Assembly (NCBI GenBank): GCA_964495945.1
Contig: CAZBWL010000001.1
Span: 181,584 to 245,583, forward strand
Origin: an uncultured Pseudomonadota bacterium
GTDB taxonomy: Bacteria; Babelota; Babeliae; Babelales; Vermiphilaceae
DNA: 64,000 bases
Reading direction: 5' to 3'
In this document: one piece after another, positions 19,926-21,967 of the stretch
Numbering within the stretch: the first letter of the stretch is position 1
Layout of the letters: each line of letters opens with the position of its first letter
Notes under the pieces: generated by a model
The model's database searches: none
What the model was told of the DNA's origin: nothing
The model's input: only the letters and a program-made list of their open reading frames with translations
Translations under genes and position numbers: made by a program

Positions 19926-19930
19926 ACCTA

Positions 19931-19975
19931 CGCCAAGCAGACTTTGCCAAGGCTTTGTCAGCCAGGGGCTACGGC
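19931..19975 (-). repeat. GC-rich ~45-nt repeat element, inverted copy
   Basis: The reverse complement, cgtagcccctggctg...agtctgcttggcg, matches both ends of the copies at 21485 and 21860. It starts 6 nt after the tmRNA CCA. Confidence 0.6.
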
Positions 19976-20136
19976 TTGTGCGACGTAGCTGAAAGCGTAG
20001 GCGTATTGGCAGGCCAGCTAACTAAGGATGGCCCGAAATAAATATTAATAGCAAAATCGTAGGTTGCCCTCCGTAGTAAGCGAGCAACGCGAGACACGTA
20101 GGATGGGCTGGCGGCCTACTTTTATAAGTCAAAATT

Positions 20137-20379
20137 ATGTATTACGTTTATATATTACAATCAATAAAATTTTCTGATCAAAATTATATAGGTCAAACCG
20201 ATGATGTAAGTCAACGGCTCTATGTCCATAATACCGGCGGCTCATCTCACACTGCGAAATACAAGCCATGGGAATTAATCTCTTCAATTTCTTTTGAAAC
20301 TAAAGAAAAAGCCATTGAGTTTGAGAGATGTTTTAAGTCTGGCTCTGGCCGTGCATTTATTAAGAAGCGATTTTTATAG
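20137..20379 (+). CDS. GIY-YIG nuclease domain protein (short, UPF0213-like)
   Basis: 80 aa. YVYILQS..YIGQTDD...R...HN is the GIY-x10-YIG motif and the conserved R follows. It is a paralog of 21591..21833. Confidence 0.8.
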   Translation: MYYVYILQSIKFSDQNYIGQTDDVSQRLYVHNTGGSSHTAKYKPWELISSISFETKEKAIEFERCFKSGSGRAFIKKRFL

Positions 20380-20460
20380 CTGTAATCAATTTGTAAGGTT
20401 TATAGGGTTTGGTATATTAATAATATAGATATTGTTATTAAATTTAGGGTTTAGAGTATT

Positions 20461-21204
20461 ATGAAAAAAATATTATCGTTATTGAGTGTGGTTTTAATTC
20501 TGATCATTAGTCCCAATATTTTTAGTATGAATGATAGTGAATTTGGGAGGATGAGCTTTGCTTTGCAAAAAAAGCGGGAAGGGACAGCTGGCTTTCAGGG
20601 TTGTAAAAACATTGCTCAATGTGGATTTGACGGTTTTTATTTATGTACATATTCACCTGAAGGACTTTGTTCAGATTGTGAATTTGAGCAGTTCCCAGAG
20701 CGATTTGTCGCGTGTTTGTTTTGTCGTCGACCGTCTTCTAAAATTTCAGAGTCATATAGTTCATTTAGTTGTTTAACGTGTTCTAGTATGATACAAAAAA
20801 TGCTTGTAAAAAAATTGAAGAAAACAGATGATTGGCGCCAAGACCAGACATTACAACAGGGCGCATATCGATGTATTTCTGATTCACATACCATAAACAG
20901 AAAGCATATTCCGATCTTTAAATATTATAAATCAAGACCAAGGGATTTTGATTCTCATGAAAAACCGCATATATATCGCGGGGCTATCTTGAAAAAAAAT
21001 GGCAATAAGCTTCATGTTTGGGTAAGTGATATTGATATTGCTGAAGAGGATAAAAAAGAGACAACATGGGAAGATTGTGAAAATTACGTGTACTCAATTT
21101 GCGACAAGTACAATATTTTTGGCCCAGAAACAGGTGCATTGGTATTAGAAAAAGTTCCTGAAAATGCATCCTTGGTGTATGAAGAGATCACAGATAAAAA
21201 ATAA
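20461..21204 (+). CDS. hypothetical secreted Cys-rich protein
   Basis: 247 aa with signal peptide MKKILSLLSVVLILIISPNIFS. Several CxxC pairs are present (CSDC..CLFC..CLTC). No family recognised. Confidence 0.5.
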   Translation: MKKILSLLSVVLILIISPNIFSMNDSEFGRMSFALQKKREGTAGFQGCKNIAQCGFDGFYLCTYSPEGLCSDCEFEQFPERFVACLFCRRPSSKISESYSSFSCLTCSSMIQKMLVKKLKKTDDWRQDQTLQQGAYRCISDSHTINRKHIPIFKYYKSRPRDFDSHEKPHIYRGAILKKNGNKLHVWVSDIDIAEEDKKETTWEDCENYVYSICDKYNIFGPETGALVLEKVPENASLVYEEITDKK

Positions 21205-21240
21205 AAACCAAGTTTAGCTAAACAACCTGCCAAAATATCT

Positions 21241-21274
21241 AAAGGCACTTATTTTTTAATAAGTGCCTTTTTTA
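21241..21274 (+). terminator. rho-independent terminator
   Basis: Perfect 13-bp stem aaaggcacttatt / aataagtgccttt with a tttt loop, followed by a T-run. Confidence 0.7.
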
Positions 21275-21484
21275 TAGATGATATGCTTTAAACAGTCGAC
21301 AACTCAGTTTGCATATTTCTCCAATTAAAAGTTCGACCGTGTCCACCATAGCTTTAGCGAAGGTTGGAAGTGTATCGTGTTTCTTCCACCACGCTTCGTT
21401 CTATCGAACTATGCGTGGCGCCGCCAGTAAAAGAAGTTTAAAAAAAATAGAGACTAAGAAGTGAAAGCAAAGAAGCGTGCCCTG

Positions 21485-21528
21485 CGTAGCCCTTGGCTGG
21501 CGTAGCTGAAAGCGAAGACTGCTTGGCG
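21485..21528 (+). repeat. GC-rich 44-nt repeat element (direct copy 1)
   Basis: cgtagcccttggctggcgtagctgaaagcgaagactgcttggcg has 3 mismatches in 44 nt against the copy at 21860..21903. Confidence 0.85.
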
Positions 21529-21590
21529 AAGCATGGGCGTATGGTAGGCAAAAAGCAAAAAGCCATTTTTACATGTAAGATTGCTTACCT

Positions 21591-21833
21591 ATGTATTTCG
21601 TATACTTACTCAAATCAGTTAATTTCCCAAATCAATCATATATTGGTTGCACAACCAATATCGATACTCGATTTAAAACACATAACAATGGTGGATCGCC
21701 TCATACGGCTAAATATAAGCCATGGATTTTGCATGCTTATTTTGCATTTGAAGAAAAGCAAAAAGCTTATGATTTCGAAAAATATCTTAAATCTCACGCA
21801 GGAAAAGCTTTTGCCAGTAAACGTTTGTGGTAA
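21591..21833 (+). CDS. GIY-YIG nuclease domain protein (short, UPF0213-like)
   Basis: 80 aa. FVYLLKS..YIGCTTN...R...HN. It is colinear with 20137..20379, for example sharing SHTAKYKPWEL / PHTAKYKPWIL. Confidence 0.8.
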   Translation: MYFVYLLKSVNFPNQSYIGCTTNIDTRFKTHNNGGSPHTAKYKPWILHAYFAFEEKQKAYDFEKYLKSHAGKAFASKRLW

Positions 21834-21859
21834 TATTAGATGAAATTTTGCGTGTCCGG

Positions 21860-21903
21860 CATAGCCCTTGGCTGGCATAGCTGAAAGCGAAGGCTGCTTG
21901 GCG
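21860..21903 (+). repeat. GC-rich 44-nt repeat element (direct copy 2)
   Basis: catagcccttggctggcatagctgaaagcgaaggctgcttggcg. It directly abuts the truncated GIY-YIG remnant. Confidence 0.85.
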
Positions 21904-21910
21904 ACGACGG

Positions 21911-21967
21911 AAAAAATATCTTAAGTCTGGATCTGGTAGAGCCTTTATAAAAAAAAGATTTTTGTGA
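21911..21967 (+). pseudogene. 3' remnant of a third GIY-YIG gene
   Basis: Translates to KKYLKSGSGRAFIKKRFL-stop. This matches the C-termini of copy 1 (CFKSGSGRAFIKKRFL) and copy 2 (KYLKSHAGKAFASKRLW). No upstream GIY-YIG portion exists, and the repeat element sits at the breakpoint. Confidence 0.65.

Follow-up and report, generated by a model that had tools for sequence, protein, structure and literature searches.

The 2-kb region directly downstream of the tmRNA gene (ssrA) in the window (the whole stretch of DNA analysed, 64,000 nucleotides) may consist of one compact module stacked in three tandem copies, each combining hairpins with a gene for an 80-aa nuclease that would act on its own hairpins, a reading for which we see about an even chance. 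A module begins at the CCA end of the RNA gene and continues with an inverted hairpin whose stem includes the CCA (H1), its inverted partner (H2), a third hairpin (H3) and an 80-aa GIY-YIG gene; units of the window's Dependentiae clade optionally carry in addition one cargo ORF and a right end finishing in TCCACCA. On the best reading, unit 1 (19926-21384, with nuclease gene g1) was inserted exactly at the tmRNA CCA and displaced the older unit 2 (with nuclease gene g2), and unit 3 is a copy that has lost most of its gene.

Genes and hairpins behind the tmRNA

The tmRNA gene occupies 19565-19925 on the plus strand (ARAGORN; Rfam RF00023, 155 bits), and its final TCCACCA (19919-19925) is the left copy of a 7-nt direct repeat recognised by junction comparison. 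Two intact genes for 80-aa nucleases of the Slx1/UPF0213 type follow on the same strand, g1 at 20137-20379 and g2, from a second lineage, at 21591-21833. Both match Pfam PF01541 (E 4e-14 to 6e-14) and their products are 51% identical. Of a third gene only the last 18 codons and the stop are left (21911-21967, plus strand); this tail reads KKYLKSGSGRAFIKKRFL, has 14 of 18 residues in common with the tail of g1, and is joined straight to the 3' foot of an H3 hairpin by an internal deletion. The same hairpin-to-gene-tail architecture has arisen independently at a related locus (L054), and the window holds no GIY-YIG genes beyond these three. Between g1 and g2 lies a cargo ORF (20461-21204, plus strand) encoding 247 aa with 12 cysteines and a hydrophobic, signal-like N-terminus; the protein contains no known domain, and a Pfam scan returned no match. 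The ORF is preceded by a promoter-like site of its own (20391-20418) and followed by a palindromic terminator (21241-21270).

An earlier sequence-only reading had listed the tmRNA, the two genes, the 18-codon tail and a set of GC-rich repeats, and all of these were found where it had placed them. The direct repeats at 21485-21528 and 21860-21903 are identical at 41 of 44 positions and, when extended to 55 nt, at 91%; the 33-nt core occurs twice against 0.00 expected in shuffled sequence. A partial copy, GTAGCTGAAAGCG, lies at 19985-19997, the stretch 19923-19973 resembles the repeat in inverted orientation (80-88% over 17-25 nt), and the degenerate copy at 21341-21367 gives the top-scoring covariance-model match in the window. 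The GC content of the repeats is 0.50-0.63, compared with 0.33-0.35 for the genes and 0.39 for the whole window.

The repeats are imperfect palindromes that form hairpin modules consisting of a 6-bp stem, a purine internal loop (GWA/GAA) and an inner stem-loop. A covariance model run over both strands of the window yielded seven matches, all within 19937-21892. In unit 1, H1 (19926-20016, minus strand) was delimited by alignment with four relatives (L136, L007, L005 and L006), by the covariance model and by inverted repeats. Its segment A, ACCTACGCCAAG, stands directly 3' of the CCA, and its segment B reads GCTACGG..TTGG, then CAGGCC; the hairpin is split by two nested modules of about 30 nt (19937-19963, minus strand; 19978-20005, plus strand), both missing from L136 and L007. 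Segment C, CGTAGGTTG (20060-20068, plus strand), belongs to H2 and is a perfect 9-nt complement, the exact reverse complement of CA plus segment A; this pairing is present in the minimum free energy (MFE) fold, and segment C covaries with segment A in relatives (GCTTTCG/CGAAAGC in L006). H3 (20066-20112, plus strand; covariance-model match of 18.3 bits) has the form GCCCTCC GTAG ... CGTAG GATGGGC and lies about 25 nt upstream of the g1 ATG. The right end of the unit (21316-21391, plus strand), identified with the covariance model and by comparison with loci L208 and L163, is made up of ttctccaattaaaaGTTCGACC, the hairpin at 21341-21367 and aagtgtatcgtgtttcTTCCACCA, and terminates in the right TCCACCA copy (21385-21391). 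It is kept in L208 and L163 as well, and the three genomes show three different A segments after it.

H1 of unit 2 (21389-21419, minus strand; 20.1 bits) begins on the CCA supplied by this right end, reads CCACGC TTCG TTC..GAA CTATG CGTGG, and has its orthologue in the hairpin that adjoins the tmRNA in L209, L206 and L210. Repeats and the covariance model place segment C of unit 2, GAAGCGTG, at 21472-21479 and its H3 at 21480-21537, both on the plus strand; the helix between segments A and C again appears in the MFE fold, and H3 carries a further module nested in its loop (21495-21522). This H3 region is what had been described as the first direct copy. By the same two lines of evidence, unit 3 retains the end of a segment C and a complete H3 (21850-21911, plus strand; TCCGGC ATAG ... 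CGAC GACGGA), which has a nested module at 21876-21892 and is 91% identical to the unit 2 copy. The 44-nt repeat of the sequence-only reading is not the basic unit but two hairpins, one nested in the loop of the other, and what was taken for an outer inverted copy is a hairpin starting at the CCA of the tmRNA. Nor are the genes framed by terminal inverted repeats: the hairpins of every unit lie upstream of its gene, in the interval from a CCA end to the start codon.

Comparative structure and linkage to tRNA and tmRNA ends

Perfect complementarity of at least 9 nt between segments A and C was found at 42 of 63 loci, compared with 10% in cross-locus controls. In the hairpin alignment 93.6% of the cells form pairs, and for each of the 10 pairs both partners have changed, values reached in 0 of 500 shuffles, although covariance-model alignments are biased toward the structure of the model and the seed hairpins were chosen for pairing. 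A model trained on H3 only also detects H1 on the opposite strand, the match beginning on the CCA in 39 of 52 cases. The pairings of A with B and of A with C are mutually exclusive, and because segment C exactly complements segment A, the H1/H2 pair could form one long stem or a four-way junction. The MFE of the two window spacers does not surpass that of shuffled controls (z -1.06 and -0.29), so the case for structure is a comparative one. Mismatches of the G·T type outnumber those of the A·C type by 16 to 8 in plus-strand and 5 to 0 in minus-strand matches, counts that are small and model-biased. A known RNA family or ribozyme was considered for the spacer, HDV-like/theta and hatchet ribozymes because their self-cleavage falls at their own 5' end, and was dropped, as Rfam searches of the window (gathering threshold) and of seven loci (E up to 1) returned only tmRNA and tRNA; a new ribozyme is possible.

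A generic family of REP-like repeats or terminators, standing beside nuclease genes by chance, would account for GC-rich imperfect palindromes in an AT-rich genome, and H1 with H2 does form a REPIN-like inverted doublet. However, all seven matches in the window are confined to the 2-kb region, a scan of related loci totalling 559 kb gave 162 model matches, of which about 155 are no more than 450 nt away from the nuclease gene, no T-run follows the hairpins, and no RAYT gene is present. This explanation, which would have made the repeats a scattered element without ties to the genes, is already largely refuted and retains hardly any probability; the association of repeats and nuclease genes proposed from the sequence holds.

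Across the family, a same-strand tRNA or tmRNA end lies at most 300 nt before the nuclease gene at 58 of 80 homologous loci and at most 450 nt before it at 62, with a median spacer of 133 nt; the remaining loci mostly have tRNA 3' fragments or contig ends. The linked loci involve 12 tRNA species as well as tmRNA, in more than 12 phyla. At a typical locus the inverted hairpin begins on the CCA itself and a direct-orientation hairpin stands just before the ATG. Two loci (L032 and L073) consist of a bare insert of about 380 nt between neighbouring tRNA genes, and L032 and L061 have nuclease-less hairpins after other tRNAs. An apparent tRNA-Tyr gene beside the g2 relative in L209 proved to be an ARAGORN mis-call of a truncated tmRNA 3' end. 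Gene callers are misled by the GC-rich sequence behind tRNA genes, and spurious N-terminal extensions are found in many database entries for the 80-aa family.

Instead of being mobile, the module might have a domesticated or host function, the nuclease serving in tRNA- or tmRNA-linked nucleic-acid metabolism, for instance by trimming a read-through transcript or guarding the tRNA flank, with the hairpins forming a cis-acting RNA leader that has a processing site after the CCA and an H3 that sequesters a GGAGG Shine-Dalgarno sequence. We give this a minor but appreciable probability. The module sits at the same tRNA in Bradyrhizobium and Tardiphaga, and its position is likewise constant within the window's own clade; no sigma-70-like promoter was found between CCA and ATG; the 3' arm of H3 frequently reads GGAGG, and at many loci no more than 30 nt separate the end of H3 from the ATG; and the exclusive A:B and A:C pairings are switch-like. 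On the other hand, closely related homologues have different partners (tmRNA, Ala, Met, Leu and others), the phyla are populated patchily, there are arrays as well as truncated copies and hairpins inserted within hairpins, and at L163 the same hairpins stand ahead of a non-nuclease ORF. The purine loop (GAA/GAA or GTA/GAA) is moreover identical in both module orientations and thus conserved on both strands, which is unexpected for a one-strand RNA and argues for recognition at the DNA level.

The nuclease, insertion and inheritance

The AlphaFold2 model of the 80-aa protein (pLDDT 94.6) is that of a Slx1-type structure-specific nuclease. Foldseek gave Slx1 and At-HIGLE as the best matches (TM 0.71-0.76, 30-35% identity), with I-TevI/UvrC at 0.47-0.51, and a sequence-profile search matched 1zg2 and Slx1. 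Across 20 sequences there is no variation at Y5, Y17, G19, R27, H31, N32 and E63, among which are the catalytic Tyr, Arg, His and Glu. The protein thus consists of the catalytic domain only, as had been supposed, and both this domain and its Slx1-nearer fold place it in the Slx1/UPF0213 clade of the GIY-YIG superfamily; a C-terminal DNA-binding module of the kind found in Seg-like homing endonucleases is absent, all 80 aa being catalytic domain. PADLOC gave a marginal partial match of g1 to PDC-S14 (E 7e-4, 30 residues) and none for g2 or the cargo ORF, and an NCBIfam look-up gave no match. The dN/dS ratios (0.03-0.07 for g1, 0.04-0.11 for g2) indicate strong purifying selection, which also favours a function for the host. 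In prokaryotes, Slx1-like domains are fused to a TrmH-like methyltransferase and associated with COG4123 methyltransferases, and a role in RNA metabolism has been suggested (Dunin-Horkawicz 2006, PMC1564403), a further point in support of such a function.

Insertion is documented by a metagenomic relative (L209) that is colinear with the window but lacks 19926-21384. The comparison defines a 1,459-bp insertion exactly at the tmRNA CCA, with an exact 7-nt TCCACCA at both junctions (19919-19925 and 21385-21391) and a degenerate GTTCGACC upstream, which may or may not amount to a repeat of the RNA gene's 3' end at both boundaries. The tmRNA 3' flank is therefore a genuine landing site, as the sequence-only reading proposed and as the family-wide adjacency also indicates. 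The repeat is short; four of its seven nucleotides fall outside the CCA, and the CCA is required by H1 in any case. A 7-nt target duplication as a general rule was rejected: it is seen in the window, L163 and L208, and is not visible in arrays from other phyla, for instance L024 and L028. Orthologues of g1 are syntenic and tmRNA-adjacent in L005, L006 and L136, and g2 is 88% identical to the L209 gene (tmRNA), 79% to that of L206 (tmRNA) and 75% to that of L210 (tRNA-Ala). The mobile cassette proposed earlier is therefore supported by the insertion polymorphism but tempered by the syntenic and conserved g1 copy, which suggests that the system is mostly inherited vertically with occasional insertion. 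A conserved second gene can be dismissed: the corresponding place in L208 and L163 is taken by ORFs of 242 and 250 aa that show no relationship to the cargo ORF of the window and have no Pfam match either, so the cargo is variable. Searches with tblastn for the family in 72,556 plasmids and 50,697 phages gave no matches and the IMG/VR viral contigs contained it at one locus only, so that no transfer vehicle is evident.

Since tmRNA 3' ends are classic sites of island integration, the region might instead be the scar of ordinary integrase-mediated islands; the GIY-YIG genes and hairpins would then be passengers, and attR copies of the tmRNA 3' end would survive in decayed form as TCCACCA and GTTCGACC. 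Window positions 20.4-32.4 kb form a segment of about 12 kb that is variable relative to L136, the right end contains GTTCGACC...TCCACCA resembling the tmRNA T-arm and acceptor end, and at L062 about 40 nt of the 3' end of tRNA-Gln are duplicated. We see only a small chance for this origin. No integrase or recombinase domain was found by Pfam in the ORFs of the unit or in the 18 ORFs of at least 100 aa between 22066 and 36477 (about 12 kb downstream); the exact repeat is only 7 nt; the inserts at L032 and L073 are bare, and in Bradyrhizobium the module adjoins a convergent host gene; and dozens of unrelated genomes have covarying hairpins that start exactly at the CCA. Elsewhere in the 12-kb variable segment there are no such hairpins.

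For a stack of hairpin and nuclease modules, the following mechanism might apply. The nuclease gene would have no promoter of its own and be transcribed by read-through from the tRNA or tmRNA promoter, and its product, a structure-specific nuclease, would recognise and cut the extruded hairpins or cruciform of its own element. Repair of the break by host recombination would copy the unit into CCA ends in a homing-like manner, and the same process would nest hairpin modules in one another's loops and yield tandem arrays and deletions; the element would mainly descend vertically and rarely move. The modules could then represent an unrecognised class of minimal mobile element of about 0.4 kb (an 80-aa Slx1-like nuclease together with a hairpin doublet and one further hairpin) that targets the CCA by structure and base pairing (hairpin TGG with CCA), borrows the tRNA promoter, spreads by nuclease-induced repair copying and mobilises hairpin-only and cargo derivatives into arrays. 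We hold this wider proposal tentatively, at somewhat less than even probability. A nuclease by itself cannot integrate DNA, which counts against the reading as a stack of self-acting modules altogether, and vertical inheritance under very strong selection is at least as compatible with a gene that benefits its host as with a selfish one.

Known systems and significance

The nuclease shares its catalytic fold and motifs with Slx1, At-HIGLE and UPF0213 (YhbQ-like) proteins and is the kind of minimal, stand-alone domain on record for prokaryotic proteins related to Slx1 (PMC1564403). Unlike Slx1, the 80-aa family has neither a Slx4 partner nor a RING domain; it forms a tight subfamily with the signature HTAKYKPW...FEKYLKS and is fixed after tRNA and tmRNA genes together with dedicated hairpins, a placement that has no reported counterpart in Slx1 or YhbQ. 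REPIN-RAYT systems likewise have imperfect palindromes with a GTAG-like motif, inverted doublets able to fold as a long hairpin (here H1 on the minus and H2 on the plus strand, with the exact A:C complement) and repeats tied to a small, strongly conserved, mostly vertically inherited nuclease gene flanked by its own repeats. However, their enzyme is a single-copy, domesticated HUH/Y1 transposase, whereas the GIY-YIG nuclease is the sole conserved enzyme here, and their tens to hundreds of copies are dispersed, whereas in the window and the related loci scanned the present hairpins keep to the nuclease locus and to the 3' ends of tRNA and tmRNA genes, with the first of them fused to the CCA.

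Integrative islands of tRNA and tmRNA genes resemble the module in their 3'-end insertion, tandem stacking at one tmRNA and, possibly, short distal direct repeat of the gene's 3' end, but the module is only 0.4-1.5 kb long, lacks an integrase, has an exact repeat of only 7 nt and begins with a conserved hairpin on the CCA. SegB of phage T4 is a free-standing GIY-YIG homing endonuclease in a tRNA gene cluster (PMC2330249); a GIY-YIG gene among or beside tRNA genes is thus common to both systems, and the presence/absence pattern fits break-induced copying. Seg proteins, however, are phage-borne, about 200 aa long, equipped with DNA-binding domains and of the I-TevI/UvrC lineage, whereas the present family is chromosomal, 80 aa long and of Slx1 type, with dedicated hairpins and strong long-term purifying selection. 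As in IS200/IS605 elements and integron attC sites, where folded single-strand hairpins are recognised, the hairpins are covarying imperfect palindromes, and insertion occurs directly 3' of a short fixed sequence (here CCA) that pairs with element-internal bases. Unlike those systems, the module lacks a Y1 transposase as well as IntI, has both of its hairpins on the same side of the gene and targets the end of a structured RNA gene. The hallmarks of an integron cassette array (IntI, attI, Pc and attC after the cassettes) are missing, with no recombinase and with hairpins upstream of the ORFs. The sequence-only reading knew of no described element class with this organisation, and we likewise found none in Rfam and no description of a tRNA/tmRNA-linked hairpin and GIY-YIG module in the full-text literature.

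If the modules act as proposed, the smallest known type of nuclease gene and three DNA hairpins would make up a self-maintaining element without integrase or transposase, occupying the CCA with which tRNA and tmRNA genes end, the most conserved landmark that bacterial genomes have. This would give a concrete substrate and role to the large, functionally obscure family of stand-alone bacterial Slx1/YhbQ-like GIY-YIG proteins, provide biochemistry with a very small structure-specific nuclease and its defined cognate hairpin, explain a widespread class of GC-rich sequence after tRNA genes, and bring in nuclease action as a further means, beside those already known, by which tRNA flanks turn into hot spots of genome variation. 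Even if the function is a domesticated one of the host, the conserved linkage of tRNA, hairpin and nuclease is new and testable.

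Nuclease genes behind tRNA and tmRNA genes

We searched a one-genome-per-species collection with a profile of the 80-aa GIY-YIG proteins, genes for two of which (g1 and g2) lie behind the window's tmRNA gene. This gave at least 567 loci, of which we fetched the best 80, i.e., those most similar to the query, many of them from MAGs. These 80 loci were spread over Dependentiae, Alphaproteobacteria (including Bradyrhizobium), Deltaproteobacteria, Ignavibacteria, Bacteroidetes, Verrucomicrobia, Lentisphaerae, Fibrobacteres, Acidobacteria, Armatimonadota, KSB1, Omnitrophica, Sumerlaeota, Cloacimonadota and CPR lineages, among others. 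Complete genomes with the family include Dependentiae AP025250.1 and Bradyrhizobium chromosomes. The gene is linked to tRNA and tmRNA genes: at 58 of the 80 loci one of these, on the same strand, ended no more than 300 nt before the start codon, and at 62 no more than 450 nt before it, the spacer having a median length of 133 nt. The partner was tmRNA (15 loci), tRNA-Ala (18 loci) or one of ten other tRNA species, and in most of the remaining loci the same spacer was immediately preceded by the 3' fragment of a tRNA, by a tmRNA end that had gone undetected or by the edge of the contig. Since only some 1-2% of the genes in bacteria directly follow a tRNA gene, the family is enriched at these ends by a factor of the order of fifty. 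At one metagenomic relative (L209, 55-149), the feature called a tRNA-Tyr by ARAGORN is a tmRNA gene cut off by the end of the contig, with only its 3' part left, so automated tRNA identities near contig edges need caution.

The 80-aa proteins form a tight family with the signature HTAKYKPW...FEKYLKS and invariant Y5, Y17, G19, R27, H31, N32 and E63, and belong to the Slx1/UPF0213 clade within the GIY-YIG nucleases. The nearest solved relatives by sequence are UPF0213 BH0048 and Slx1, and an AlphaFold model (pLDDT 94.6) superposed best on the catalytic domains of Slx1 and plant HIGLE (TM 0.71-0.76, 30-35% identity) but poorly on those of I-TevI and UvrC (TM ~0.5). Slx1 and HIGLE cleave branched DNA (flaps, junctions and stem-loops). 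Both the g1 and the g2 lineage are under strong purifying selection, with dN/dS of 0.03-0.11 at near-saturated synonymous sites. An exhaustive profile search (E up to 1e-10) returned 3,481 representatives of 50%-identity clusters; many database entries of the family (e.g., protein representatives P0122-P0270) are annotated with 20-90 additional N-terminal residues, which probably reflect start codons that gene calling placed within the GC-rich hairpin spacer. The family was not found in plasmid and phage collections and is nearly absent from viral contigs.

Hairpins of the spacer

Segment A of the spacer directly follows the CCA and has the consensus NNN-TTCG-CC, and segment C, further downstream, is the exact reverse complement of A together with the CA of the CCA. 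Perfect A:C complementarity of at least 9 nt was present at 42 of 63 loci, compared with 10% in a control that paired A with the spacers of other loci, and the variable triplet covaries between the segments (e.g., CGC/GCG, GCC/GGC, GTC/GAC, ACCTAC/GTAGGT, TCCTGC/GCAGGA). The hairpin 3' of C (H3, segment D) has a stem of 6 bp, a purine internal loop (3x3; GWA vs GAA) and an inner stem-loop that varies in length. In a hand-made alignment of 34 hairpins, 90.7% of the cells were paired, with changes on both sides in 6 of 10 pairs; among 122 distinct covariance-model matches, whose alignment is fitted to the model and whose seed hairpins were selected for pairing, the values were 93.6% and 10 of 10 (0 of 500 shuffles as high). 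A model trained on H3 only detected a second hairpin, H1, on the opposite strand in nearly all loci. The match began at most 2 nt from the tRNA CCA in 39 of 52 cases, so that the CCA supplies three base pairs of the H1 stem. H1 (A + B) and H2 (B' + C) are mutually inverted copies and thus allow two alternative folds, either the hairpins A:B and B':C or the nested perfect helices A:C and B:B', an arrangement that, in double-stranded DNA, corresponds in its sequence logic to a cruciform or four-way junction. No matching family was found in Rfam. By predicted folding energy, the two spacers of the window did no better than shuffled sequence, and the structural case is therefore comparative; the A:C helix is present in the MFE folds of both. 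At three loci (L035, L076, L078) the module order is permuted, A and C forming a direct hairpin at the CCA, followed by H3, with B/B' downstream of H3 instead of between A and C.

The purine loop GAA/GAA or GTA/GAA (in module orientation) was found in 50 of 75 plus-strand and 37 of 47 minus-strand hits, and the same loop on both strands is what one would expect of a folded DNA module recognised by a protein, but not of an RNA made from one strand. This speaks against a domesticated RNA- or tRNA-linked function with the hairpins as an RNA leader, which we consider possible though rather unlikely. Long-term vertical inheritance speaks for it (by nearest-neighbour analysis, descent is mostly vertical, neighbours sharing clade and tRNA, with tRNA-Ala(GGC) being the partner throughout Bradyrhizobium and Tardiphaga), as do methyltransferase fusions noted for prokaryotic Slx1-like domains (PMC1564403). 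Something else, such as a guide or ribozyme role of the transcript, takes up the small probability left by the other readings. Clear switches also occur, namely in an 81%-identical pair within Dependentiae (tRNA-Ala vs tmRNA), in 80%-identical pairs (Met or Leu vs Ala), in g2-type genes, some located at tmRNA and some at tRNA-Ala, and in a 76%-identical pair that an alphaproteobacterium and a verrucomicrobium have in common.

Hairpin modules of the same family were also found at neighbouring tRNA genes without a nuclease gene behind them, directly after tRNA-Ser (twice; L032, 3588-3650 and 4425-4487) and after tRNA-Lys and tRNA-Glu (L061, 3445-3471 and 3591-3621), which is how non-autonomous copies would look. 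Gene-free tandem hairpin sets (B-B'-C-H3) lie upstream of the nuclease gene at four loci from Bradyrhizobium and other phyla (L028, 1-310; L060, 3700-3905; L070, 1735-1900; L077, 3800-4000), and the copy number of such arrays may vary.

Stacked units behind the tmRNA gene of the window

Synteny and the names of homologues place the window organism in Candidatus Dependentiae. In the window, smpB (19046-19498) precedes the tmRNA gene (19565-19925; ARAGORN, Rfam 155 bits), which is followed by g1 (20137-20379) and g2 (21591-21833), two intact GIY-YIG genes of 80 codons (Pfam PF01541, E ~1e-14 each) whose proteins are 51% identical, and by the remnant of a third gene, g1-like, of which the final 18 codons are left (21911-21967). 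Between g1 and g2 lies a cargo ORF (20461-21204) encoding 247 aa with a signal-like N-terminus and 12 Cys, in which no known domain was found. A perfect 13-bp AT-rich palindrome flanked by T-runs (AAAGGCACTTATT...AATAAGTGCCTTT; 21241-21270) after the cargo ORF is likely a bidirectional terminator, which would insulate g2 against upstream transcription. The sequence-only reading, which had proposed a cassette of GIY-YIG genes and a 44-nt repeat at the ssrA flank, placed the GC-rich repeats correctly (GC 0.50-0.63 vs 0.33-0.35 in the genes), two direct copies being identical at 41 of 44 nt, or 91% over 55 nt. Elsewhere in the 64-kb window neither a further repeat copy nor an additional GIY-YIG gene was found, and a generic REP-like repeat is an explanation to which we give hardly any weight.

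A scan of the 64 kb with the covariance model (unfiltered and on both strands, E up to 10; the E-values are rough) gave seven hits, all within 19937-21892, which resolve the region into an array of three units. Unit 1 has segment A (19926-19937) directly after the tmRNA CCA, segment C at 20060-20068 and H3 at 20066-20112, followed by g1. Its H1 is interrupted by two hairpin modules of ~30 nt, at 19937-19963 (minus strand) and 19978-20005 (plus strand), both missing in the close relatives L136 and L007; the sequences that had been read as an inverted and a partial repeat copy are real, and correspond to these modules. Unit 2 comprises H1 (21389-21419), segment C (21472-21479) and H3 (21480-21537), whose loop holds a nested module (21495-21522), and is followed by g2. 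Unit 3 (21850-21911) shows a deletion: H3 is complete but only the end of C is left, and the 3' foot of H3 is fused to codon 63 of a gene, an architecture seen independently in an Ignavibacteria locus (L054).

Insertion at the CCA end and the origin of the units

When metagenomes were scanned with the 3' end of the tmRNA gene, most matches were unrelated bacteria with plain terminators, but relatives of the window organism were also among them; look-ups of g2 homologues yielded further relatives. In L209, the tmRNA 3' end is followed by a unit 2-type spacer and a gene 88% identical to g2 (blastn: L209 17-149 matches window 19795-19925, and 143-249 matches 21385-21490); the two matches overlap by TCCACCA, a short repeat of only 7 nt found at both window positions. 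The window therefore has a 1,459-bp insertion (19926-21384) precisely at the tmRNA CCA, an insertion polymorphism that contains hairpins, g1, the cargo ORF and a right end (RE). RE is ~75 nt long with one hairpin inside, and terminates in ...GTGTATCGTGTTTCTTCCACCA. L208 and L163 have it too, conserved but located behind other cargo, with a different A segment next in each genome; it is part of the inserted unit and re-creates a CCA for H1 of the displaced unit. Another relative, L206, carries at its tmRNA a unit of the g2 type with a triple compensatory change against the window (A, TGC vs CGC; B, GCA vs GCG; C, GCA vs GCG), L100 retains decayed hairpins only, without a nuclease gene, and L163 has hairpin sets upstream of non-nuclease ORFs. 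An ORF family of 242-250 aa occupies the cargo position of units in two relatives (L208, 503-1231; L209, 717-1445; L163, reoriented, 9554-10306), with 54% identity between the two genomes and no Pfam match; in L163 it stands directly after the hairpins, where the nuclease gene would be.

In L136, the tmRNA gene, unit 1 and the g1 orthologue are followed almost directly by genes that the window has at 32.4-34.4 kb, in its stretch of HAD hydrolase and P-type ATPase genes (32.4-36.5 kb), and the window thus has a variable segment of ~12 kb (20.4-32.4 kb; 20380-32450) at the tmRNA flank. Scars of an integrase island at the tmRNA gene are a very improbable source of these patterns, no recombinase domain having been found in the unit or in 12 kb downstream. 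The variable segment carries on the minus strand (22338-24069) a probable toxin-immunity set, in which a 303-aa protein ending in a colicin-type 'Cytotoxic' domain (22627-23538) stands between a DUF6980 protein (22338-22622) and a CdiI_N immunity-like protein (23569-24069). Next in this segment come genes for two class I methyltransferases, at 24070-24981 and 25964-26800, and for an SbtA-type transporter at 28899-29870. The gap between smpB and tmRNA, 66 nt in the window, holds 1-2 kb of extra DNA in L005 (2467-3424), L006 (2456-3458) and L163 (6719-8829), the last including hairpin-model hits (7673-7776). In L062, ~40 nt of a tRNA-Gln 3' end, along with the start of the hairpin element, are duplicated 2.6 kb apart (1340-1450 and 3840-3900), one copy on the intact tRNA and the other on a tRNA fragment before the nuclease gene, as if an island had entered a tRNA end that was occupied before.

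The module is similar to REPIN-RAYT systems in that a conserved nuclease goes with cognate palindromic doublets, to tRNA-targeting islands in the site used, to IS200/IS605 elements and attC sites in having folded hairpins beside a short fixed target, and to Seg-type homing endonucleases in its nuclease superfamily, but it departs from each of them in a defining feature. A description of the system was not found in the openly accessible full-text literature, Rfam, NCBIfam or PADLOC; its novelty is to be read as 'not found' rather than 'proven absent'.

We give an even chance to the model that the modules linked to tRNA and tmRNA genes are elements driven by their nuclease. No sigma-70-like promoter was found in the spacers, H3 often ends no more than 30 nt from the ATG, and its 3' arm often reads GGAGG; the nuclease gene would be expressed by read-through from the tRNA or tmRNA promoter. 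The nuclease would recognise its own element, in the form of folded modules or of the cruciform, and breaks made there would be repaired by host recombination, which may occasionally copy a unit into another CCA end, and may also duplicate or delete units and seed hairpin modules into loops.
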